Shown piece by piece: positions 41,135 through 64,000 of a stretch of 64,000 bases of DNA; positions within the stretch are counted from its first letter, which is position 1, and each line of letters opens with the position of its first letter. Made by a program: the position numbers and the translations under genes. A model generated the notes under the pieces. The model made no database searches and was not told the DNA's origin. It saw only the letters and a program-made list of their open reading frames with translations. The DNA comes from Macrostomum lignano (lineage: Eukaryota): NCBI GenBank assembly GCA_002269645.1, contig NIVC01001785.1, positions 173,763-237,762 on the forward strand, written 5' to 3'.

Positions 41135-41474
41135 AGTAGTAGGGCGAATTATGATACTGCCGCACTAGCACTGGCGAGATAGGCGGCAATGCAAATGTAT
41201 AGGGAAAAATACACTGCGGAGATATGAGCCCTATCTCTGTGCATTGGGGACGGCTAAGCACTGCAGAGATATGAGCTCTATCTCTGTGCATTGGGGACGG
41301 CTAAGCACTGCAGAGATATGAGCTCTATCTCTGTGCATTGGGGACGGCTAAGCACTGCAGAGATATGAGCTCTATCTCTGTGCATTGGGGACGGCTAAGC
41401 ACTGCAGAGATATGAGCTCTATCTCTGTGCATTGGGGACGGCTAAGCACTGCAGAGATATGAGCTCTATCTCTG
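41135..41474 (+). repeat. Left TIR (340 bp) including five 47-bp units
   Basis: Starts AGTAGTAGGGCGAATTATGATACTGCCGC; matches the right TIR in reverse complement. Confidence 0.93.
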
Positions 41475-41500
41475 TGCATTGGGGACGGCTAAGCACTGCG
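41218..41500. repeat. 47-bp tandem repeat x6 in and just beyond the left TIR
   Basis: AGAGATATGAGCTCTATCTCTGTGCATTGGGGACGGCTAAGCACTGC; no spacers. Confidence 0.95.
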
Positions 41501-41847
41501 GAGATAGAGGCGATTCATGATACTGCCGCACTAGCGCTGGCGAGATAGGCGGCAAAAAGGATATAGGAAAAATACACTGCGGAGAGGATCCTATCTCTGT
41601 GCATTGGGAACGGCTAAACATTGCAGAGATAAGAGGGGTGGCCAATCTCTGTGCTCTGTGTTAGGGTAAGGTTATAAAGTTTTACAACTGCACAGAGGAC
41701 GGCTGGTGTTGCTTACCTGGATAAGGGGACGGGGGGATACACTAATTACAGCCAGTGGCCTCTATAACGGTAAAGTAATTATTACCTGAGCATGGCTGGA
41801 TGTTCATATACGATATGATAAGGAGAGGGCATGCATGTACAAATTAC

Positions 41848-50996: not shown

Positions 50997-53900
50997 GTTC
51001 AACAGTCAGCTTCAGCAGAGTTGCCCAAGCCTATGATCAATCACTGGAAATACTGAGGCTCAGATCGAGTCACCCAGACACGCTTCCGTCAGAATTTTTT
51101 GTCCAAGCTGGAGACAAAATTATTGAGGCAGTTCAGCAAAGAATTTCAAGACATCATTACAAAGTTCAGCTAAAGGCGAATATTCGAATGGTCCGAATAA
51201 GAGATGGGGAGATGCTTGCCGAAGAGGACAGATGGATAAGCTGTAAAATGCAGGCCCTAGACCTAGGTGGTGAAGCAGGCCGTTTAAACAACTGGTTGAT
51301 TGAGCAGGAGCAGGAGTTGGAGAGGATCTGTAGTATGATTAATACGAACGGCAGTGGCTGGACAATTAAACAAATTAATTTTCTAGACATCAACCTTGCC
51401 AGGTACAATCCAATTCGATTTCGCCAGGGCAGAGCCGTTAGATTCAATCTTCCTGCCAGTTTGAAGAACAAAAAGGCTGTTATCAATCCACCGAGCACAG
51501 GCAAAGACTGTTTCCTGTACGCCTGTCTCGCTGCACTGCACAGCGCCGATCCGAAAGTTCAGAAATCGCCCAACAGAATATCCTCTTACGATGAATGGTT
51601 GCGTGAGCTGGACTTTGCAGAAATCTCCATGCCAGTGAGTGTCGCTGATATCGATCGCGTCGAGTCTAACAATCCAGGAATTTGCATTTCTGCGTTCTCT
51701 TGGCAGCAGGGCAGTGTGACTCTTCTCCGTCGCCGCAAGCATGAGTCAGATGACCGAAGACACCTCATGCTTTTGCTAGTTAAAGACAGCTACGGATCGG
51801 AGCACTGGTGTGCAATTACTAATTTTGACAGGTTAATGAACAGTCGTAATGGTCCCGCCATGAGGAAGTGGTGCACGAAATGTTTAACATCATTTTATAG
51901 CAACGAGAGGCTTCAAGAGCACAGGAACGAATGCAGCATTACTGCAGAAAATCCTGTCAAAGAAACGCTTCCAGTTCCAGGACAGAATGAAATAAAGTTC
52001 CGAAACTGTCAAAACACTGTCAGTCCACCATTCGTTGCCTATGCCAACCTGGAAGCCATTTTGCGAGCGAACACAGACCCTGCTAACCTGATCTCAAAGC
52101 ATGAACCATGTGCAGCAGCTTTTCTTGCAGTGCCTCGTGAAGGCATGACAGGACCTCCGCTTAGGCCAGAAGGAGACATGTACAAGGTCTTTTGCAATGC
52201 GGACCCTGATGAGTGTATCCTTGGTTTTCTCAAATCTCTTGAAAGCCTGGCTCAGGATATATTTCACTGGAACCAGAAGCATAGCCACCAGCCGGCTGAC
52301 CGATCATCCGCGACCGTCATGGATGATTTCAATTCTGCTGAGGTATGTCACTACTGCAAGAAGAACTTTAAAAGTTCTACAGATAAACATTTTGACCACG
52401 ATCATTTAAATGGACAGTACAAAGGTGCAGCATGTCAAGAATGCAACCTGCGAGCACAGCTCCGACGCCGGTTTCTGCCCCTGGTTTTTCACAACTTAGG
52501 CGGCTACGACCTTCATCTTCTACTTTCCACTGCGCTTGGGAGCATGAAAAATTGGAAACTTAGTGTTGTTCCGCAATCATCCGAGCGATACTTGTCACTA
52601 AGGGCGGAATTCCCTGTTGCAAGTTACGTAAAGAACGGAAAAGTTGTGCCAATCATGTTTACAATTCAGTTCATCGACTCGCTCTGCTTTTTGAAGGGAA
52701 GTTTGTCCAATTTGTTTGCTAATCTTCCCGAAGCTGAATGCAAGCTGACAATGCAAATGCTTGAGTCAAGACCACATCTTTCAAGAGAGCTACTTCGAAA
52801 AAAGGGATTTTCCCATATGATTACCTCACAGGATTTGAGATTCTCGAGCAGTCGGTTTTGCCGCCTAAAGATGCTTTTTTTAATCGACTTTCCGATCGGG
52901 GAATTTCCGACGACGACTACAATAGAGCAAGAGCGGCATGGGCGGCATTTCAATGCAAAAGTTTGAAGGATTATATGCTCGCCTATCTTGAAATGGATGT
53001 AAGGCAGCTGGCTGACATTTTCGAGACATTCCGACAGGCCAGTCTGAAAGAGGACGGATTGGATCCGGTACACTACTTTACTACTCCTGGTTTGTCTTAC
53101 GACTCAGCTCTAAAGTCGACTGGAGTGGTTCTAGAGCAGCTGACTGATGCTGACATGTATCATCTGTTTGAGAAGGGAATACGAGGAGGCATGTCCTTCA
53201 TTAATGTGCATTGCGTCAAAGGTAATAATCCTAGCTTGCCAGGTTATGATGATCAGCAAGAGAGTGTAAGCCTCATGCCGATCGATATGAACAACTTGTA
53301 TGGCTTTGCCCTGTCGCTTCCGCTTCCATGCAGGGAATTCAGGTGGGTACCGGAACAGGAAATCCAGTTCTGGGACTCCAATCGGTTTCTGTCACTCAAT
53401 CCAGAAGCCGAGATCGCCTACCTTGTTCAACTCGATCTAGAATACCCAGCTGAGATTCACGATTCGACTCAGGAGTTACCGTTTGCACCTGAAAAATCAA
53501 AACCACAGCCAGATCAATTCTCGCCGTACATGGCCGAACTATGGAAAGAGATTGCTGAACAGCGAACTGGCAATGCTGAAGCTAAGTTTCAAGCAACGGA
53601 GAAGCTTCTACTCACCTGTACCGACAAGGATTCTTACGTAGTTCACAGCACCGTTTTAAGATTTTACCTGCAACACGGAATGCGGATCAAGTGCGTCAAA
53701 AAAATGATTTCGTTCAAGCAGGAAAATATTTTCGCGCCGTACATTGCCAGCAACAATGAAAAAAGAGCTTTGGCAACTTCCGAGTTTGCTAAGGATTTTT
53801 ACAAATTGAAAAACAATTCTCTCTTTGGAAAAACTATGGAGAACGTTCGAAAAAGATGCGATGTTCGAATTTGCACTAACCAGACTCAAGCAGAAACTTG

Positions 53901-54645
53901 CGCCTCTCGACCAAACTGTGCCGCATTCTCGATTATCAATGAGTCGTTGAGCATTTTTCAGCTCAAAAAAGATAAAGTCACGCTTGACAAGGCCATTTTC
54001 GTTGGCCAGGCAGTTCTCGATCTCTCTAAGATGGCCATGTACAGCCTACTATATGACAGGCTCCGACCGCTGTTCTGTCATTCAGACGGTTCCAGAGACA
54101 TGATGCTTTGCGGAGGTGATACTGACTCATTTTTTCTAGCTTTCAAGAATCATGATTTAACATCGGAGGTAATCCCGAAGCTTAGAGAGGAAAAAATACT
54201 TGACACATCCAACTATTCTCGAGACCATCCGCATTTCTCTGAAGAGTTAAAAGGAAAGCTGGGCTGCGTTAAAGATGAATCTGCTGGTGGAATTTACCAG
54301 GAGTGGATTCTTTTGCGTCCAAAACTTTATTCGTTTCTCCCTGCCGAGAATTCGAGTGCAAAGATCAAGAAAACTGCCAAAGGCGTGAAGCAGTCAGTAG
54401 TAAGACAGCAAATTTCGCATGCGAACTATGTCGACGCGTTCGAGTCCAAGCAAGAGCAGATGGTTGCCATGACAGCGATTGTTTCCAAGAAACACGAAAT
54501 CTTCACGTCGGTCATGGAGAAAAGAAGCCTATCGGTGTGGGAGGATAAGCGAGTGTGGCTTAGCAGTAATCGAAGCCTGCCCTACGGACACTATGCGCTG
54601 ACGCCCGCATCCCACGATCAGCTGAAGCGCATCCGACTGGTCTAG
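50997..54645 (+). CDS. polB: Protein-primed family B DNA polymerase (pPolB), one frameshift at 52798-52804
   Basis: Frame open from 50984; YANLE (ExoI), CHYC...DHDH...C (endoVII-like Zn insert), FHNLGGYD (ExoII), KGIFPYDY after the shift, DMNNLYG, KLKNNSLFGKTMEN, GGDTDS, LRPKLY, DKRVW. Confidence 0.96.
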
Positions 54646-55227
54646 TGCGGGTGTTTAACAGACTGTTTAGTACTTTTTCTTGCTTTTAGAGTTGTTTAAA
54701 TTGCCAAATTCTGTTTTAAATGTAGTGACTTGCATGTAGTAACTTTTACAAATTTGTATGCTTGGCTAATTGCGCTAGATTTAGCTGTCAATTTGTTTTT
54801 GCGGCGTGAAATATTGATATCAATTTAAGTTTTACTTTTTATAAAGCTGTGTGGCAAGTGCGCTCATACAATATTAATTCATTTTTGTTTGCTTTGTGTA
54901 CTACTTGTTTAAAATGTGTTTTTGGTTTTTATCTGACACAAATTGTTCCTGTAAATTCAATCAGCGTTTTAATCATATTTTCTCTATCACTTTTCTATTT
55001 CTCTTCTCTCGGTGCACATCGTTTGTTATAACGATGGTAGTATTGTTTACTTTCGGATTTGATATGCGTTTTGCGATACTTTTGGTGATGGGCTAAATAC
55101 GTTTTTGAAGTGTTCCATAGCTGTCTGCCTGGGAAAATGAATGTAAAGAATACCAAGTTTATCCTTTTATTCACTTTTCACTAATCATTGAAATATTTGC
55201 GGCAAATTGCTTGACTTGACTTTATTT

Positions 55228-55800
55228 TTATTCAATGGAAAGAACTACATTGAGTAGACGCATGCTATCGGTATGCAACTGATTCAAGGACCGAGCTCCA
55301 CTGAGAACAAAAGAGCCGCTGTGAAAAAGCAGACATTTACAAAAGTTTAAATTGAAAATTAAAGCAGAAAAGGATTCTGGTTCATATTCGGCGTTTGGGA
55401 TAATTGATTTTAACATTAATAAGGAAAGTGCGGAATGAACTGGGAGCTGTCCATGAGCAGTAATAGTTTTAATTCGAACACAAATTGTTTGATGAGGCAG
55501 CAGTTGAGCCGGCACTCTCCGATGCAGCATAGCCACGAAGCGACGGGCAGCCCTTTTGGCGTCTGCGTGGGTCTTGGCACCGCAGATGCTCAGTTGCCCA
55601 GTAGGGTAGAGTAGGAGAGTCACTCTGGGAATCCGCATCCGCTTGATGAGCACCCGGGGCCAGACGGGCCGGTAGATCACATGAGCCATGCTGAGAGCCA
55701 GTTCCCGTAGAGGCAGCTGAGCGCCCCTGCCACCATCCAGTCTCAGATCTACTCCGCCAACCAGATTGGTCACTCTTAGGGCTGTAGCTGGTGGGCTCAT
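55228..55800 (-). CDS. Virus-encoded divergent TATA-binding protein (TBP-like), 190 aa
   Basis: Two TBP repeats: TNLV...YRP...RMRIPRVTLLLYPTGQLSICGAK...AARRF and ...YEPESFSALIF...LLFHSGSFVLSGAR, compared with TBP QNIV...YNP...[23 protein letters not shown]...AARKY / YEPELFPGLIY...LIFVSGKVVLTGAK. First ATG is 55800 (the ORF track starts at TTG 55839). Confidence 0.9.
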   Translation of the reverse strand: MSPPATALRVTNLVGGVDLRLDGGRGAQLPLRELALSMAHVIYRPVWPRVLIKRMRIPRVTLLLYPTGQLSICGAKTHADAKRAARRFVAMLHRRVPAQLLPHQTICVRIKTITAHGQLPVHSALSLLMLKSIIPNAEYEPESFSALIFNLNFCKCLLFHSGSFVLSGARSLNQLHTDSMRLLNVVLSIE

Positions 55801-56320
55801 TTCGATCGTCAACTTCTTCACCAAATCTGCTTCTGCCAACTTTACTGCTCGTGTGCCACGGACACTGCTCGCTTCTTAAGTTGATGCAGAACTTTGGCTT
55901 AAGCCAACTGTAGTGCAGCAACGAATTTCTCACTGCACAGCCAGTATCTGAATCTTCAGTCGAGGGTGCTCCCAAATCTTCTAGGTTATAAACCTGTCTT
56001 CCAAGCAGCTCAGTCAGAAAAATCGACTTCCTTTCCCCATTTGACCAGATCGGACCACTGGCAATGCTCAGAATGTCTTCCGCCAGTTCCATGTACGGAC
56101 GGGTTCCATCATTCCACTTAAACTGGTGCAGACTCTTAGATAGCTGTCTGTAGTAAACTCGCATGTCAGGTGAGACTCTCTCCCATGGATACGGAGGTGC
56201 GTACACATGGTGAGCAATGTGGTAGCTCCCCGCTCTGATTTGAACAACTGCCAACTCCTTCACAACAAATTTTTTGCTTGTGCTGTTGCACGGGAATCCT
56301 TGGAAGTCAATGTAGTTCAT
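55469..56320 (-). CDS. Polinton accessory protein, possible DEDD/RNase H-fold nuclease; C-terminal extension suspect
   Basis: IDFQGF...FVVKELAV...PPYPW...HQFKWNDG...NLEDLGAP...CAVRN...W pattern in the first ~145 aa, recalled from animal Polintons; the rest overlaps the TBP gene in another frame. Confidence 0.55.
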   Translation of the reverse strand: MNYIDFQGFPCNSTSKKFVVKELAVVQIRAGSYHIAHHVYAPPYPWERVSPDMRVYYRQLSKSLHQFKWNDGTRPYMELAEDILSIASGPIWSNGERKSIFLTELLGRQVYNLEDLGAPSTEDSDTGCAVRNSLLHYSWLKPKFCINLRSEQCPWHTSSKVGRSRFGEEVDDRNEPTSYSPKSDQSGWRSRSETGWWQGRSAASTGTGSQHGSCDLPARLAPGAHQADADSQSDSPTLPYWATEHLRCQDPRRRQKGCPSLRGYAASESAGSTAASSNNLCSN

Positions 56321-56349
56321 GATGCAGCTTTCCTTCGAAAATTTCGGAG

Positions 56350-57042
56350 TCAGTCCACCTTCTTATATACTTTTCTGGCAGGCAATTTCAGCCAGGCTGT
56401 GTTGCTCCCGTACCCCTTGACTAGACTCTCCTGTTCTTTCTCCAGTTCACCCCCTCTGCTGGTTGCCATTTTCTTCTTAACTGATTTACCAACAGCGGAA
56501 AGCGGAACATTAAGCTTTTTCTGCTGCAGAAAATCGATGAACTCGTTCCACCCAACTGGTTCACGCTCACATGGCGAATCCCTCACTGTGTGCTGAATCA
56601 AGTCCAGTATGTTTGAGGAAGGGATTGACGTGCCTGCGATTTCCACCTCCCCGTTTTCACAAACTCGAATCAGCTCTGGATTGGTGGACAGGATCGTCCA
56701 CAGACTGCGAGCCCTGGTTTTGAATTTCTGTGGCACCGACTTGCTGATCTTCTCTTCCCAGGTGCTTATCTGGGGTGTCTCTGTTTTCATCAACTTGGCT
56801 TCAGTATTGCGTGCTCCTTCTTTTCCAGCGTGCTTGCGCTTGGCCAGCAAACTTTGCATTGCACTTTGGTACATGGCGGTTTTCACATCTTCTGGACAAT
56901 CCTCGGCATACAAGATGTCATCGCATTTCTTCTGAGCCTGCTTCAAGTCAGCTTCAGTGGTAGTCTCATTTGGCTTCAAATTCTGCATCAACATCTCATA
57001 CTCTGCTTTAGGAATCAGAACCATTTCTGAAAATTTGTTCAT
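56350..57042 (-). CDS. Conserved Polinton/adintovirus protein of unknown function
   Basis: MVLIP...DDILY...Y...SVPQKFKTRARSL...GEVEIAG...SSNILDLI...PVGWNEF...NVP pattern typical of animal Polintons. Confidence 0.75.
   Translation of the reverse strand: MNKFSEMVLIPKAEYEMLMQNLKPNETTTEADLKQAQKKCDDILYAEDCPEDVKTAMYQSAMQSLLAKRKHAGKEGARNTEAKLMKTETPQISTWEEKISKSVPQKFKTRARSLWTILSTNPELIRVCENGEVEIAGTSIPSSNILDLIQHTVRDSPCEREPVGWNEFIDFLQQKKLNVPLSAVGKSVKKKMATSRGGELEKEQESLVKGYGSNTAWLKLPARKVYKKVD
56362..56369 (-). promoter_or_regulatory. TATA box (TATATAAG) upstream of the DEDD-like/TBP-like unit
   Basis: 41 nt upstream of ATG 56320; identical to the boxes at both element ends. Confidence 0.45.
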
Positions 57043-57346
57043 TTTGCTTCTTCTTCTTTACCAGCTTAAGCAGAATCGGGAGTATTTTGATGAAGCCAGC
57101 CTTCAACAAGTCTGTCTTTCTTCTTTTGTGAGTAATTTTTCGAATTATCTCTTTTGACTTTGCAAGAACAGCTTTTTCATCGAGCGAAAACGATAGATTG
57201 TTTTGTAAGAGATTATGGCAGGCCTCGACAAGAAAATAACGCACTTCTTTTGGACAATTTTTTATCAACAGCCGCTTGAAGCGCACGGTATATTTAGGTG
57301 ACGCAAGAACCGCAAAAAGACTTGCATATGAATCAAGCACTTCCAT
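57008..57346 (-). CDS. Small basic conserved Polinton/adintovirus protein (112 aa from MEVLD)
   Basis: RLLIKNC...FLVEACHNLLQNNL...EKAVL...IIRKI...AGFIKILPILL resembles the conserved small virion-associated ORF. Confidence 0.7.
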   Translation of the reverse strand: MEVLDSYASLFAVLASPKYTVRFKRLLIKNCPKEVRYFLVEACHNLLQNNLSFSLDEKAVLAKSKEIIRKITHKRRKTDLLKAGFIKILPILLKLVKKKKQNEQIFRNGSDS

Positions 57347-57387
57347 TGCGATGAAAACAATAGCTGATAAAAACAAGCTTCACTTTC

Positions 57388-58067
57388 TTAAGCAAATACA
57401 AGATGGGGTCGCTGGTTGGGCAGAATTCTGGCCCGCACTCGCAGCTCATCGGGAGTTGATGGGTGAAAGTCTAGGAACAGGTAGGCTCCCCTGCCCTGCG
57501 CGGTCACGTGCTTGAACACTGACAGCAGAAAGCCGGGCTTCTCTGTAAAGCACTGCCTGCCCAGTGCTGCAATCTGCAGCTGGTCTCGGGGTTTTTCAAG
57601 ATAGCTAAGTACATTACATTCAAGCTCATTGTTCGCGACTCTTTTCCCTTGAAAAATATATTCTGAGTCAGCATCACCAAAAAGCACGGCAAGTGATGTG
57701 CGATTCCTGTGAAAAAATTTCGCATTGAAGCAGAGTTTGAAGTTTCCTCTATTAAGTCATCGAAAACAACCAGGTCATTGGGCCTAAGTGCTGCCTCGAT
57801 GTTGGTGGGAAATCCCTGGCGCAGCTGCACACCTAGGCTGTTCAGTTCTGCATGGCCTGCCTGTGAGATCCCATAGTACCACAGAACTCTGCCAGGCTTC
57901 ACATCAAACATGACGTCTCTGTACTGGATCAGGTGTTCGACAAAGGTTGTTTTTCCTGCATTGGTGGGCCCGCAGACAATCATGCAGCTTCCCTGCCTGA
58001 GGCGGATATCGTAGCAAACTTGCTTTTCTCCCATGTTTAATGCATAAATATTAGAAATCACGGACAT
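57388..58067 (-). CDS. A32/FtsK-like genome packaging ATPase, one frameshift near 57588-57596
   Basis: GPTNAGKT (Walker A), VVFDDL (Walker B), LTQNIFFKGKESRTMSLN; the C-terminus PRDQLQIAALGRQCF...YLFLDFHPSTPDELRVR is in the adjacent frame. The true start may be ATG 58034. Confidence 0.93.
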
Positions 58068-58106
58068 CTTTTTCTTAAGTTGGCTTCAAACCTCTGTAAG
58101 ATTCTA

Positions 58107-58568
58107 TCATTCAAATGATTTTTCATTAGCATGCAAATGCTTCAAAATCCCCTCAAATGACCGATTGAACAGAAACTTTTGATAAGCAAAATAGATGCAA
58201 AACATTCCGCATTTATTAGAGTTAGCACATTGAACTCTGTTTATATTGCTTCGGAGCCAAAAGCCAGTTGTTTTAATCTCTCGAAACAAATTATAAACCA
58301 AAGATAAAATTTCAGGTTCCCAGCCGAGGGAGTTGAACAACTCAATGCGATTTCCTTGCCCAACATAGCACACCACCCAGTGACCAAATGAGCCATTGTG
58401 CTGAAGTAGGACAAAAACAAACTTGTTTTCAAAGGAAATTGATGATCTAAATTTTCTTTTTACATTCAAGGGCAGAGAATTTTTATAGCGCAAATGTAAA
58501 GTAACTATGAGAAATTTTTGGTAAGGCAAAAATTTTCTGGCGAGATTAAGTAGTTGAATTGCATCCAT
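58107..58568 (-). CDS. Adenain-like cysteine maturation protease
   Basis: GHWV (His), ELFNSLG, VQCANSNKCGMFC (Gln, Cys); 153 aa, intact. Confidence 0.9.
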   Translation of the reverse strand: MDAIQLLNLARKFLPYQKFLIVTLHLRYKNSLPLNVKRKFRSSISFENKFVFVLLQHNGSFGHWVVCYVGQGNRIELFNSLGWEPEILSLVYNLFREIKTTGFWLRSNINRVQCANSNKCGMFCIYFAYQKFLFNRSFEGILKHLHANEKSFE

Positions 58569-58573
58569 GTCAA

Positions 58574-59855
58574 TTAAGAGGAATAGTCCAGCAAAAGCTC
58601 TCGGTGCTTGGTGACCTCAATCAGCGAGTCATACAGGCACATAGCAATCAGGGACACCGCTTCATTCAGAGCCTGTTGGAAGCGAATCTCCAGCCGCAGG
58701 TTGCCCTCCTTCTGTCCGTACCACAGAGCCGCTCCCTCGGGTGTGAGATCGAATGCAAACACCGTGTGTTGTTGGAGAAGAGCTGGTAGGGGATCCACGG
58801 ACCGAGTTTGTGTGGCTTGCAGATTGACAGCTTTTCAGGTAGTGCAAGTATTCTCTTACGAAGGAATTGTTTTCAGGTGTGAAGGCGCCGTGGCACACGG
58901 TTTCCCCACCTTTCTTTAGAGCCAATCGGCTAAGGTTGAAGCTCTGGAACTGTAACGGGCTCGCGTGATGATGACCGTTGAATGCTCGGTGGCTCACGAA
59001 GGCCAGCATGATGAACTTCGGCAATTTTCCATGAGTGAATCCTTCAATGTTTTTTGACTGAATACCCTGGGGTAGGATGAAGTTCTGCATTTCAGTTCGC
59101 TCGATGGGATACAGTGCATTTTGGTTTGTCAGCCCCTGCTCATGGGCCAGGCTGATGTGGGGCATCACTTTGACTCGGCGAAGATGCAGAATGCTGTGAG
59201 AGATTTCCATTCGGTATGCCGCGTTGTTTGCATTCGGGGTTCTGATGGCAAAGGCCCCATCGCTGGGGACCAGTTTGATGTGCAGGTGCAGATTGCTTAG
59301 CAGAAACACTGGGCACTGGAAAACATCGCTGAAGAGCGGCCCCGCATACTCCATCCATTGGGATTCCCTGTGGCTCTCCGTGTGCTCTTCAGCTGCCGAG
59401 TTCGGCTCCAGGAAGCCAGCAGGGTAAAGTTTTAGTTGCTGGGCATCGGATGAGCTCATTAGTGCTTTGAAGTACGCATGGTAGGGATAGAGCTGGTCTC
59501 CACCAGACACCACTCGCTGGTTAATGCTCACAATTACATCTGAGAAGGCTGTAGACAGAACAAAATTTTCTGGGTGCACGTCACTGTCTCTGCGCTCGGT
59601 GATGATGCCATCTCCATCTCGAACATCCTCCCTCAGCAAACCCCCATCCAGTCTCACAAGGCGGCAGCGAATATAAAGAAAAGAATTAAGCAGATCTGTA
59701 TATTCATCGGCAGATTGGTGGCAGTCAAATTCAATGGGAGAGTTTGCAACAATGGAATTAACTGGGTGAATATCAACATAAGTAGCTTTTTCAATGCAGG
59801 TTTGTAGAACGGGCGTCTTAAATAAATCAAGTCTGGGATTGAATCCGTAAGCCAT
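58574..59855 (-). CDS. Major capsid protein (double jelly-roll hexon), one frameshift near 58832-58835
   Basis: LDLFKTPVLQTCIE...SPIEF...DEYTDL...YPYHAY...AFNG...F; the C-terminus VFAFDLTP...GNLRLEIRF...IEVTKHR..LLDY is in the adjacent frame. Confidence 0.92.
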
Positions 59856-59857
59856 GT

Positions 59858-60235
59858 CTATGACAGAGAGTCGAGCACGCGTTTCACAGTTTTCTTGCTG
59901 ACTTTTTGCTTTCGCTTTCCTCCGCCTGCTCTATTCTTCTTTGCTTTCGTCTTCCTATTCTTAAGCTTTTTCCCACTAGCCTTGCTCGACCTCTTACTGC
60001 GATTTCCACCAGTTGCCTTTCGGGTGCCCTTCTTTTTCTTCAATCGTTTCGGACTTGCTTCAGTATTTCTTTTGCGCCTGACGTTGCTAAGCGTCGAGGC
60101 TGATGATGATGATATAGCCGCTGGCGGAGGCTGGTATGTCATGATCCCTGGGAAGCTCCCACAGCCATAGAGTGCAGGCTTTTCGTGTCCTGTCCTCACC
60201 CCCGAATATTGCTGGATTAGCTGCTGGTAGTTCAT
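59858..60235 (-). CDS. Small Lys/Arg-rich putative core (DNA-condensing) protein, 125 aa
   Basis: Starts MNYQQLIQQYSG...LYGCG and ends in a very basic tail; the ATG overlaps the corrected penton stop (ATGA). Confidence 0.6.
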   Translation of the reverse strand: MNYQQLIQQYSGVRTGHEKPALYGCGSFPGIMTYQPPPAAISSSSASTLSNVRRKRNTEASPKRLKKKKGTRKATGGNRSKRSSKASGKKLKNRKTKAKKNRAGGGKRKQKVSKKTVKRVLDSLS

Positions 60236-61049
60236 TGAATGCGTTTCTCCTGAATTTGAACTGTAAGCAGAACAGGGCTGTGAGTCTGTGCAATCAGTGG
60301 GCAACCATAGATGTCCGCAGCTGAACTCGAATGCTGTGAAGAAGACTGATTCGTTGAATCGGGAAGAATATTGTTTTCTTAAATATTTTTGTTTGATAGT
60401 TGCCCCATTCAATGCCAGCTTTCATTCCAACTGTTCTCAACAAGGAGCTCCAGTTGCAATTAGTTGACTCAACGATACTGCAGTGCACATTGATTAAGCT
60501 GGTGCGCGGGCAGCCAATGCAATGCTCGGATACGCGGCTCCCTGGCTGGATTTTCACAGCCTGGTTTCCAAATCCCAGCCAATGCAGAATTTTACTAGAT
60601 GGAAGAAACAGCTCTGCTCTCGCAGTGTTGTTGTGCACCACAGTTCGTGAGTTGCGGATTTCGAACTTCATACCAAATTCCCTGTTGCCACTACGCCCCA
60701 TCAGGCCGGACTCATCAGCCTCCATCTCAGACTCCCTGTCACTCATTGCATCAAAGAACAGCGAATCAGAGTTGGCCAGCAGCTCATTCAGGCGCTCCAC
60801 CAGCTCCTCCACTCTAGCAAAGCGTCCGGGTTGAAGAACCAGGGCCTCATGCTCTCTTCCATCTGAGACAGTGAAGCAGTAAGGCTCGTCAACATTGAAC
60901 CATGCAGCAGGCAGATGGATTTCAGCCAGACCTGCCTCATAGTCCACATTTCGATCCAAGTAAATAGGTGAAGGCAGGTAAAAATTAAAGTCACTAGGAG
61001 TACCTTCAGCATGCTCACTGTTAATCAAAATAGTTCGCATTATAATCAT
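60232..61049 (-). CDS. Minor capsid protein (penton), one frameshift near 60315
   Basis: DFNFYLPSPIYL...YEAGLAEIHLP..WFNV...PG...LGF...VHCSIVE...LLRTV; the C-terminus DIYGCPLIAQTHSPVLLTVQIQEKRIQ* is in the adjacent frame. Confidence 0.85.
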
Positions 61050-61077: not shown

Positions 61078-62148
61078 CTAAACCTTTCTTAAGTCTTTTT
61101 CATCCACCCAGCCAGTCGAGTCGTAGCCCGCCCATTTCACCAGATAGCGAATTTTTCCCTTCCGCTTCTCCGTTTTCAGGATCTTCTCAATCACATACAG
61201 CCGCTGTGAGTCCGGGACAGCCTGCAGCTCGTGCTCATGGAAGAGTCCTCGAATCTCTTGCCCCCGCATGTCTTTAATCTTGTACATGTAGGGATAATGT
61301 TTTGGGGCTCTGCTCACCACGGTGTACACTTCCTCACTCCAGCTCGCTTTGTATCCCTTTTTGAATATCCGTGGAGCATTGGAAATTCTCACTGACTGGT
61401 TTTCAGCGAACTTAGGCTTCTTTAATTTTTCTAGAGTCTCGACTGCTTTTCCATCGTACAGGTTCATCCACACTTCAGATTCATTCTCTTTGCAGACACT
61501 AGTGGGTGCCATTTTGATGCTTCTGTGGTAGGTATTGTTGTAGGATTTTACCAGCTTAGGCAGCACATCAAGCCAGTGCAGTGTGCTCTTGTAGGTGAAG
61601 TAGCGCCACATTCTACTTTTCAGAGTTCGATTCCATCGCTCAATGACAGCTGCCTTCTGCTCGCTGTTAGTTGGGAAAGCCAGAATCCCTCTGTCAATGC
61701 AGTATTGACGGAAAGTGGAGTTGATAAATTCCTTCCCCTGATCTGTGCGAACTGTGCGTGGCTGGCGCTTTGAACTTCTCAGTATGCTCTCGAATGCTGA
61801 CTTCACTTCTGCAGCAGATTTATTTTTCAGTGCCTTGGCCCAAGCACATTTTGAGAGCACGTCAATGCATGTGAGAATATATTTGTAGCCTTTATTATGC
61901 TTTGCGAATGGAATCATTTCCACTAAGTCAAGTTCCCACTGATCATCGATTGCGCGCACTATGATTGGGGCCCTTGGATATCGCCTCCTAGCTGGCTTGT
62001 GCAGAGTGTGCACTGGCTGCTCGCTGAGCCACTGCTCAATGCTCTTTGCAGATATTCGATCACCTCTTTGCCTCACTTCATGCAGCAACTTTGAGGCACA
62101 AGAAAAACTAGCCGGTTGCTCAGGTTTCAAATAAATTTTCTCCATCAT
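61078..62148 (-). CDS. int: RVE (DDE) integrase with C-terminal chromodomain
   Basis: WELDLVEM (D), RTDQGKEF (D), AVIERWNRTLK (E); chromodomain YVIEKIL...YLVKWAGY...GWV; 356 aa, intact. Confidence 0.96.
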   Translation of the reverse strand: MMEKIYLKPEQPASFSCASKLLHEVRQRGDRISAKSIEQWLSEQPVHTLHKPARRRYPRAPIIVRAIDDQWELDLVEMIPFAKHNKGYKYILTCIDVLSKCAWAKALKNKSAAEVKSAFESILRSSKRQPRTVRTDQGKEFINSTFRQYCIDRGILAFPTNSEQKAAVIERWNRTLKSRMWRYFTYKSTLHWLDVLPKLVKSYNNTYHRSIKMAPTSVCKENESEVWMNLYDGKAVETLEKLKKPKFAENQSVRISNAPRIFKKGYKASWSEEVYTVVSRAPKHYPYMYKIKDMRGQEIRGLFHEHELQAVPDSQRLYVIEKILKTEKRKGKIRYLVKWAGYDSTGWVDEKDLRKV

Positions 62149-62474
62149 GGGTTTATCAAGATACGTGCCTATCCACCTGCTCTAGCTGTACAGTATTTTT
62201 TCTTAAGTAGAAATTTATATTCCAATTAAATGATAGAGAAACGAGTGGCAAATTAATTTATTACTGTCAGATTGAAACCTCTAACATCGTAACAGTCGGT
62301 GTATTTTCCGAAAGCAAACAATCCATAAAAACGAACACTAAAACACTCGCACACCAGCATTTCAGAAATAGCAGAGATAAAAACAGCATAGTGCCGTCAG
62401 GCTGGATAATCATGTGCAAGCTAAAAGTAATTTAGTTAGTCCAATGCATTCAAAGCATTCTAGCTGTTCAGTTA

Positions 62475-62822: not shown

Positions 62823-63099
62823 CAGACTCCAGCTCGTACTGCATTGTGTTCCTCAAGGGAGCCACCAGCTGACCGTCGATCCAGGAGGCGATTTTCCAGA
62901 GCTTCTGCCACAGCGGCGGAGTCAGTGGTACGGCGTTTCGTCTCAAAAACTCCTCGCAGCAATCTTCCGGCAGCCGTTTGAGCCAAATGATGCCGCCTTT
63001 GACTTCCACAAACTTATCGAAGCCGAGTTTCACGACCTTGGGCTCGTTGTTGCGTGCAGAAATCACAAGTGAGCGTTTCCCTCCTTCAATTTCTTCCAT
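62779..63099 (-). CDS. Second, divergent PC4/Sub1-like domain
   Basis: KLGFDKFVEV...NAVPLTPPLWQKLWKIASWIDGQL compared with PC4 QIGKMRYVSV...[24 protein letters not shown]; acidic tail ESDEEEEEED. Confidence 0.6.
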   Translation of the reverse strand: MEEIEGGKRSLVISARNNEPKVVKLGFDKFVEVKGGIIWLKRLPEDCCEEFLRRNAVPLTPPLWQKLWKIASWIDGQLVAPLRNTMQYELESDEEEEEEDKAQVGG

Positions 63100-63239
63100 T
63101 GGTGAACATTCAGGTTGAATCCTGGGACGCCTGGCTTCAGACTTGCCGTGCTGCCGTGTCGGTAAAATTTGCGAATAGCGATAAATTTTTGTCCTTCAAA
63201 CTCCTGGACTTGTGCCTTATAGCCTTCACAGATGTCCAT
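63063..63239 (-). CDS. PC4/Sub1-like ssDNA-binding coactivator domain (58 aa, absent from the ORF track)
   Basis: MDICEGYKAQVQEFEGQKFIAIRKFYRHGSTASLKPGVPGFNLNVHQWKKLKEG compared with PC4 FKGKVLIDIREYW...[19 protein letters not shown]. Confidence 0.85.
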   Translation of the reverse strand: MDICEGYKAQVQEFEGQKFIAIRKFYRHGSTASLKPGVPGFNLNVHQWKKLKEGNAHL

Positions 63240-63343: not shown

Positions 63344-63404
63344 CTTATATACCCTCGACCGAACCACCCCAAACCACCCATCCCACTCCGGGCTCTGTGA
63401 TTGG
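63344..63404 (-). promoter_or_regulatory. Right-end Pol II promoter: CCAAT box and TATATAAG
   Basis: CCAAT at 63404-63400, CACCC/GT boxes, and TATATAAG at 63351-63344, ~105 nt above the PC4-like ATG 63239. Confidence 0.6.
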
Positions 63405-63679: not shown

Positions 63680-64000
63680 CAGAGATAGAGCTCATATCTC
63701 TGCAGTGCTTAGCCGTCCCCAATGCACAGAGATAGAGCTCATATCTCTGCAGTGCTTAGCCGTCCCCAATGCACAGAGATAGAGCTCATATCTCTGCAGT
63801 GCTTAGCCGTCCCCAATGCACAGAGATAGAGCTCATATCTCTGCAGTGCTTAGCCGTCCCCAATGCACAGAGATAGAGCTCATATCTCTGCAGTGCTTAG
63901 CCGTCCCCAATGCACAGAGATAGGGCTCATATCTCCGCAGTGTATTTTTCCCTATACATTTGCATTGCCGCCTATCTCGCCAGTGCTAGTGCGGCAGTAT
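63680..64000 (-). repeat. Right TIR (321 bp visible) with five 47-bp units
   Basis: Reverse complement of 41154-41474. Confidence 0.95.

Follow-up and report, generated by a model that had tools for sequence, protein, structure and literature searches.

A Polinton of ~23 kb in the genome of Macrostomum lignano encodes its own TATA-binding protein (TBP), which, on the evidence of its sequence and its many relatives, is a real, maintained and recurrent gene of the element under purifying selection. Viral TBPs are already known; what appears to be new here is that a Polinton TBP is paired with a candidate matching box, a TATA-like motif with a TAAG core that precedes most genes of the block encoding the integrase, the putative capsid proteins and the putative packaging ATPase. 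The element lies inside a stretch of 64 kb, referred to below as the window, to which all coordinates refer unless a locus is named.

The Polinton encodes an intact TBP

The open reading frame (ORF) at 55228-55800 on the minus strand specifies 190 amino acids (aa) with no internal stop. Pfam family PF00352 matches the protein over two stretches (E 7.9e-25), and 35 of the 36 matches in a PDB sequence search were TBP chains or TBP fusions (best E 2e-18). An AF2 model (pLDDT 77.9) has the two-lobe order of strands and helices, the top PDB matches found with Foldseek were all TBP (best E 2.8e-13), and a BFVD structure search returned viral TBPs from E 8e-10 at 7-19% identity. The protein has the two repeats and the saddle fold of the PF00352 family, and an artefactual ORF was rejected. 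A protein record that is 99% identical (P0002) also comes from M. lignano.

Inverted-repeat arms at 41154-41474 and 63680-64000, 321 nt long and 100% complementary, flank the TBP gene block, and the marks of a Polinton/adintovirus are present, namely, a protein-primed DNA polymerase B (pPolB; PF03175), an rve integrase (PF00665), an adenain protease (PF00770) and terminal inverted repeats. The contig ends at the end of the window, within the right repeat, so that the right terminus and the target-site duplication lie outside the available sequence. The TBP gene closes the minus-strand block, its 3' end facing that of pPolB. An earlier note on this DNA had claimed an intact two-repeat TBP fold at the end of the minus-strand block, well inside the terminal repeats, and had proposed profile searches and structure prediction as a check; the ORF, the searches and the repeat arms uphold that claim. 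The features of the window are as follows (family 1 is the TBP family of this copy).

41135-41506, plus strand: left terminal inverted repeat, starting AGTAGTAG
51188-54645, plus strand: pPolB, split over two frames in the window copy; its own strand is without a TAAGAA box
55228-55800, minus strand: Polinton-encoded TBP, 190 aa, intact (Pfam, PDB, AF2, Foldseek, copies, selection)
55873-55880, minus strand: CTTAAGAA box, 80 nt 5' of the TBP start and within the upstream ORF; kept in 11/11 family-1 representatives
55469-56320, minus strand: 283-aa ORF, function unassigned (a DEDD/Maelstrom-like resemblance is a mere lead); the final 110 codons share their DNA, in another frame, with the TBP N-lobe
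56360-56369, minus strand: TATATAAGAA, a canonical-like TATA plus a TAAGAA box, 47-49 nt 5' of the 283-aa ORF
56350-57042, minus strand: 230-aa ORF, function unassigned; variant box CTTAAGCT upstream at 57063-57070
57008-57346, minus strand: 112-aa ORF, function unassigned; CTTAAGAA box at 57385-57392
57504-58067, minus strand: P-loop ATPase, putatively for packaging; frame broken in the window copy; box at 58072-58079
58107-58568, minus strand: adenain-like protease (PF00770, E 1e-4); no box within 160 nt 5' of it
58662-59855, minus strand: putative major capsid protein, by size and position only; box at 59958-59965
59858-60235, minus strand: basic 125-aa ORF, putative core protein; box TTTAAGAA at 60376-60383
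60294-61049, minus strand: putative minor capsid protein, by position only; box at 61086-61093
61078-62148, minus strand: rve integrase with chromodomain; box at 62200-62207
63063-63239, minus strand: PC4-like ORF (PF02229, E 5e-9); canonical TATATAAG upstream at 63344-63351
63680-64000, minus strand: right terminal inverted repeat, truncated by the contig end
1842-2438, 13110-15579, 19218-20204, 20894-25635, 27777-35600 and 43940-46700: other features of the window, described next

These other features are a host SNF2 exon, two LINE reverse-transcriptase elements, a rhodopsin-type G protein-coupled receptor gene and long arrays of 21-25-nt tandem repeats, one of which lies inside the Polinton. 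Within the block, the two capsid candidates had no match in Pfam, PHROG or PDB; the ATPase ORF has a P-loop, but the PF04665 (A32-like) profile found no match anywhere in the genome; and the predicted structure of the upstream 283-aa ORF reached a pLDDT of only 41.5. Frameshifts break the pPolB, ATPase, protease and both capsid-candidate ORFs (51188-61049) in the window copy, and the TBP and integrase genes are uninterrupted. Contigs from four public runs, possibly of RNA, span the block, carrying no information on strand, level or 5' end; contigs of public runs differ by short indels at 51188-61049, and some of the frameshifts there may be assembly errors.

The TBP gene recurs and is under purifying selection

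Family 1 gave 152 TBP matches in the genome; among the 150 listed, 25 are identical across all 190 aa and ~28, counted by eye, contain stops. The same ORF was the upstream neighbor at 42/42 TBP loci examined, and pPolB lay downstream of TBP in 29/30 near-identical loci. A second TBP family, 36% identical to the first and with 38 genome matches, has the same gene order (ATPase, small ORF, ORF, upstream ORF, TBP). Pairwise comparison of 11 family-1 representatives gave dN/dS values of 0.10-0.58, below 1 in 55/55 pairs, the values for the C-lobe being rough because synonymous sites there are near saturation. Given the 152 matches, the dN/dS values and the like neighbors of a family only 36% identical, the Polinton TBP is no stray pseudogene. 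The earlier note had proposed a search of other copies and had named a dN/dS near 1 as the mark of a captured pseudogene; the gene turned out to be present in many copies and in further lineages (152, 38 and 72 matches in family 1, family 2 and a third lineage, respectively), and the dN/dS values contradict the pseudogene.

The phylogeny against TBP and TRF2 proposed in the same note was also built. In a tree of 55 rows chosen from ~160, families 1 and 2 and their relatives from outside formed one clade (100/98), separate from both host TBP and the host TRF2-like gene, with which the Polinton TBP shares 25% (range 23-25%) and 23% identity, respectively. An origin from TRF2/TBPL1 was rejected, the host TRF2-like gene grouping with P0018 (100/100) and away from the Polinton clade, as was a recent capture from the host, given the 23-25% identity to host TBP and the separate clade.

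Relatives of the Polinton TBP are present in data sets outside the Macrostomum genome, as proteins without a known genomic context (P0003-P0005, P0012, P0019, P0169, P0170, P0181, P0182 and a set of short TBPs). The short TBPs, a clade of 170-176-aa proteins (P0041, P0044, P0050, P0088, P0089 and P0099) in which N159 is replaced by T, group with the Polinton TBPs (96/85) and are candidate Polinton TBPs of other animals. Scans of viral contigs for the context of such relatives yielded two nucleocytovirus-like TBPs, one unrelated element and no relative, and a metagenome scan yielded 21 loci, 0/21 with Polinton neighbors.

Two peculiarities of the gene itself were seen on the way through these copies. 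Among subfamilies it is mosaic-like, with synonymous differences of 0.02-0.46 over codons 9-110 versus 0.56-0.84 over codons 112-186 in 53/55 pairs, a pattern that would fit subfamilies having exchanged their C-lobe and 3' flank. Furthermore, the upstream ORF runs for 107-129 codons across the TBP N-lobe, in another frame, in 11/11 family-1 representatives and in family 2; the chance of that frame being free of stops on the TBP N-lobe (55469-55800) is 0.001-0.02 per lineage. We speculate that the overlap encodes an S/G/R-rich tail by overprinting or else keeps ribosomes from restarting at TBP on a long transcript.

The DNA-facing surface is altered, and the TFIIB stirrup is kept

We numbered residues as in yeast TBP after Table 1 of PMC12529657, in the part of that paper available, with host TBP as the anchor. 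Canonical TATA-binding TBP has four intercalating phenylalanines on its DNA face; alignment to host TBP places W47-P48 and Y65 at the two N-lobe sites (yeast F99 and F116), so that the four positions read P48 (or W47), Y65, F144 and F159. The central asparagines and Pro191 are likewise incomplete, as N12 (N69) is kept and T112 and S145 stand for N159 and P191. The QNMV of TBP has become K111-T112-I113-T114. The earlier note had listed W/P, Y and KTIT as altered DNA-facing positions, and the comparison with host TBP confirms them; the changes P191 to S145, V122 to S, T124 to C and V203 to K go beyond its list, and V161 is also replaced.

These replacements do not scatter among relatives. In 26/26 clade rows, F116 is Y, T124 is C, Q158 is K, N159 is T, V203 is K, V122 is S or T and P191 is S, T or N, and N69, V71, E186, E188, F190 and F207 are kept. 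Phe occurs at F99 in no clade row; family 1 has W-P-R there, and the H-P-R of family 2 aligns to F99 in two alignments and is shifted in a third. The basic contacts K120 and K211 are lost, as is R196 in most clade rows, and family 1 keeps basic residues at 3/4 helix-2 positions checked (K82, R87 and R94), family 2 being without a basic patch; R196, K120, K211, V203 and the helix-2 lysines are further positions of the yeast sequence. Fixed replacements at such distances point to a new ligand and not to decay. Nevertheless, with one of the four phenylalanines gone, another replaced by Tyr and basic residues lost, DNA binding by the viral TBP may be weak or absent, the herpesvirus TBP mimic ORF24 needing all four.

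The acidic YEPE stirrup, which the earlier note had described as retained, is indeed so: comparison with host TBP confirms the glutamates E140 and E142 (yeast E186 and E188), present in 26/26 clade rows. In most viral TBPs, according to the available text of PMC7221094, the TFIIB-binding glutamate signature has changed and a viral TFIIB has been gained. A search of the genome for the TFIIB family (PF00382) gave 15/15 matches at host loci and none in the element, in which a very divergent TFIIB might escape such a search; the Polinton accordingly has no orthogonal TBP-TFIIB pair of the nucleocytovirus type among these matches. The host TFIIB gene is split by introns.

A box with a TAAG core precedes the virion block

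All six copies of CTTAAGAA in the window (6/6) lie on the minus strand of the TBP/capsid block. Six copies over the whole 64 kb are not unusual (7/100 shuffles reach 6), but six within the 7.2-kb block are, the expected number being 0.2 (0/500 shuffles). An unbiased k-mer ranking of family 1 placed TTAAGAA first among 7-mers and CTTAAGAA first among 8-mers. The degenerate motif [AT]TAAGAA, which, like the TATAAGC of the third lineage, was defined after looking at the sequences, occurs nine times in sense and never in antisense in the family-1 7.2-kb block (expected 1.5) and seven times and never in family 2 (expected 0.9), and it is absent from the pPolB sense strand in both families. Thus, the sequence that the earlier note had put forward for binding tests is a real feature of the block.

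A TAAG-core box stands before 8/10 genes of the integrase-capsid-packaging block, 12-161 nt 5' of the ATG, the exceptions being the 230-aa ORF (CTTAAGCT) and the protease (none). The sites occupy three reading frames as well as intergenic stretches, and codon-permitted sites are used in 6/13 cases within 150 nt of an ORF's 3' end (expected 1.1; P 1.6e-4) versus 0/11 elsewhere; on these grounds, we rejected amino acid or codon usage as the origin of the box. The box before TBP has been kept in the family-1 representatives even though the ORF around it has changed its codons: of 19-20 conserved Leu/Arg positions, no more than 9-12 use the codon of the window copy in the distant representatives. 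A TBP-less control, one AT-rich pPolB element, incompletely seen, with no TBP hit in 15 kb, showed no strand bias (8 sense versus 7 antisense). An AT-rich pPolB element family without a TBP hit (L088/L089; G000:C2322) has TATAAAAAATG directly 5' of several ORFs.

The box differs by lineage, being CTTAAGAA in family 1, (C/T)ATAAGAA in family 2 and TATAAGC in lineage 3. In family 2, a canonical TATAAAAG precedes TBP in 10/10 loci read (8 distinct copies). In lineage 3, TATAAGC occurs 5/0 and 4/0 times in sense/antisense (expected 0.19 and 0.26) in the ATPase/minor-capsid-candidate block of two subfamilies and is absent before the TBP gene. Canonical TATATAAG precedes PC4 and a 472-aa ORF; the PC4-like genes stand behind canonical TATA boxes in families 1 and 2 (family 2: L041:864-1301) and give the element, besides TBP, another fold known from Pol II cofactors.

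The earlier note had supposed that the viral element would be non-TATA. A candidate non-consensus box does exist, but it is a TATA variant with a TAAG core (TATAAGAA and TATAAGC in lineages 2 and 3), and cellular TBP, including that of the host, may tolerate these TATAAG variants; according to the available part of PMC1636458, G at position 6 is compatible with binding by wild-type TBP. At position 1, the Pro corresponding to yeast P191 favors T (PMC12529657, available part). Position 1 is C in 6/9 family-1 and 3/7 family-2 sites, both families being without this Pro, and 9/11 ATAAGC sites start with T in lineage 3, where the Pro is kept. Covariation of Pro loss or retention with C versus T at position 1 is suggestive, with three lineages compared.

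A third, very distant lineage carries a TBP fold

While seeking a TBP-less control among other pPolB families, we met a third, very distant Polinton lineage in the genome with a TBP-fold gene (72 genome matches; e.g., L092:5743-6360). Profiles alone detect it, with matches to solved TBPs at E 3e-8 and an hhalign probability of 98.4%; neither Pfam nor single-sequence PDB searches gave a match, and genes of this type are probably under-annotated, as Pfam misses them. In a 38-row tree, lineage 3 joins families 1 and 2 and the short TBPs at 96/85, but on a very long branch, which makes a common origin with families 1 and 2 no more than tentative. Its surface has Pro in the F99 loop and Y-P at F116 and keeps F-P at 190-191; its stirrup has Asp/Ala or Asp/Lys before the second Glu (YDAE/MDKE), one Glu being lost. 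Most of these TBP-fold genes are without an ATG at the start of the fold; much as a spliced exon would, they follow a pyrimidine-rich ..CAG/TAG that they have in common. Most adjoin a deoxynucleoside kinase, with which the gene forms a single open frame in L100.

A model for TBP-dependent expression and its alternatives

We consider it somewhat probable that transcription proceeds in two steps: host TBP starts those genes that have a canonical TATA box, and the viral TBP then reads the TAAG box, borrowing host TFIIB and Pol II to transcribe the integrase-capsid-packaging block. The stand-alone TBP core would be the element's own promoter-recognition factor. Host TBP would first transcribe PC4, the 472-aa ORF and the upstream neighbor of the TBP gene; the viral protein would then bind (C/T)(T/A)TAAGAA in the minor groove, recruit host TFIIB and Pol II through YEPE and switch on the packaging and virion genes. 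It would also activate its own gene in a positive-feedback loop, because the TBP gene itself has the box. The N-lobe of TBP is oriented toward the 3' half of its box, and the polar N-lobe of the viral protein (P, R, Y, S and C for F, A, F, V and T) would face the G-containing 3' half, with loss of the Pro admitting the C of CTTAAGAA at position 1. The more general proposition, that an animal Polinton lineage runs a one-protein orthogonal promoter system in which a bare TBP core, a lineage-specific TAAG box and host TFIIB/Pol II turn on the virion block, strikes us as slightly short of an even chance. Several points count against the model: the box also precedes the integrase and family-1 TBP genes, unlike a clean scheme of early activator and late targets; the family-2 TBP gene stands behind the canonical TATAAAAG, and the boxes of families 2 and 3 are TATAAG variants; and the 12-nt distance from box to ATG leaves too little room for a TATA box at -30, unless translation starts from a later ATG.

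The same surface could instead belong to a decoy, a reading that we regard as unlikely yet deserving of attention: the boxes would be weak TATA boxes read by host TBP, and the viral TBP, without specific DNA reading, would soak up TFIIB or TBP regulators (NC2, Mot1/BTAF1 and TAF1), damping host transcription or freeing host TBP. Retention of the stirrup glutamates in every clade row while the DNA face lost Phe and basic residues would fit this, as would the basic K82, R87 and R94 of family-1 helix-2, a surface used by regulators (PMC7221094, available part), and the tolerance of cellular TBP for TATAAG variants (PMC1636458, available part). However, that basic patch is not kept in family 2, the DNA-face replacements are fixed, not drifting, between proteins 36% identical, the family-1 box differs from TATAAAAG at three positions and, in lineage 3, F-P and the second Phe remain although one of the stirrup glutamates is gone.

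TAAG is also the late promoter motif of the baculovirus type, which raises the improbable case that the box belongs to the late promoters of a large DNA virus acting as helper, on which the element would depend like a virophage, its TBP serving another step or the helper's machinery. The TAAG core is common to three lineages, the short distances from box to ATG fit initiation within the motif, and a literature on virophage and PLV promoters exists; but pPolB, integrase, PC4 and TBP are all encoded by the element itself, the box varies by lineage outside TAAG, as expected if its reader travels with the element, and no helper virus was identified, the LEF-8 search, which gave no match, being uninformative. 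That the gene is a functionless passenger, a captured retrocopy of host TBP, is hardly credible. The host TBP core is itself intronless and stops occur in some of the listed copies, as noted above, yet dN/dS below 1 in all pairs refutes it, and identity to host TBP of only 23-25%, a clade of families 1 and 2 (100/98) apart from host TBP and TRF2 and relatives in other data sets all speak against it.

Relation to known TBPs

Like cellular TBP, TRF2 and archaeal TBP (PF00352), the Polinton protein has the two-lobe fold, N69, V71, F190, F207 and E186/E188; unlike cellular TBP, it has no N-terminal extension, has replaced F99, F116, V122, T124, N159, V161, P191 and V203 and belongs to a separate clade. 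With herpesvirus ORF24/BcRF1/UL87 (PMC12529657, here and below in the part available), it shares a viral TBP fold, a more polar DNA face and a non-consensus TA-rich box before structural genes, which in the Polinton is putative and derives from sequence statistics; use of host Pol II as by ORF24 is our inference for the Polinton. ORF24 turns its polar TBP face to TATTWAA, keeping and needing all four phenylalanines. It is a large multidomain protein in a six-member complex, with four Phe and the Pro kept and without the TFIIB glutamates, whereas the Polinton TBP is a bare 190-aa core with the glutamates kept and one Phe and the Pro lost. The Polinton TBP may work like the herpesvirus mimic without being a member of its group; it belongs to the TBP family but departs from canonical TBP at the residues that contact DNA. 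Nucleocytovirus and mirusvirus TBPs (PMC7221094, available part) likewise have a virus-encoded TBP fold but a diverged TFIIB signature, often with a viral TFIIB, whereas the ~23-kb Polinton keeps the signature and no TFIIB was found in it.

The earlier note knew of no such system in Polintons, and this holds in part. Among adintoviruses, Polintons and MELD viruses, "TBP" already appears as a label in the legend to Fig. 5 of PMC8502044, where it is undiscussed; in the available text of that paper, "promoter" occurs 0 times in the main text, with no box or mechanism, no TBP was found in the supplement text, and the preprint likewise has the figure label only. The words TBP, TATA and promoter are all absent from PMC10748475. 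Our literature search, whose coverage left out most subscription journals, found no description of a Polinton TBP with a promoter box.

Significance

A dedicated TBP with a matching box offers a testable handle on the timing of Polinton capsid genes and on whether Polintons act as viruses, in an animal for which transgenesis and 5'-end libraries exist (PMC5730564, available part). These proteins also bear on TBP specificity as natural variants in which nearly every textbook DNA-contact residue has been replaced, yet the replacements have been fixed by selection. If the one-protein switch is real, no smaller TBP-based switch from early to late expression would be known, the lineages would form a natural series of altered-specificity TBPs and there would be evidence that Polintons run a timed viral program.
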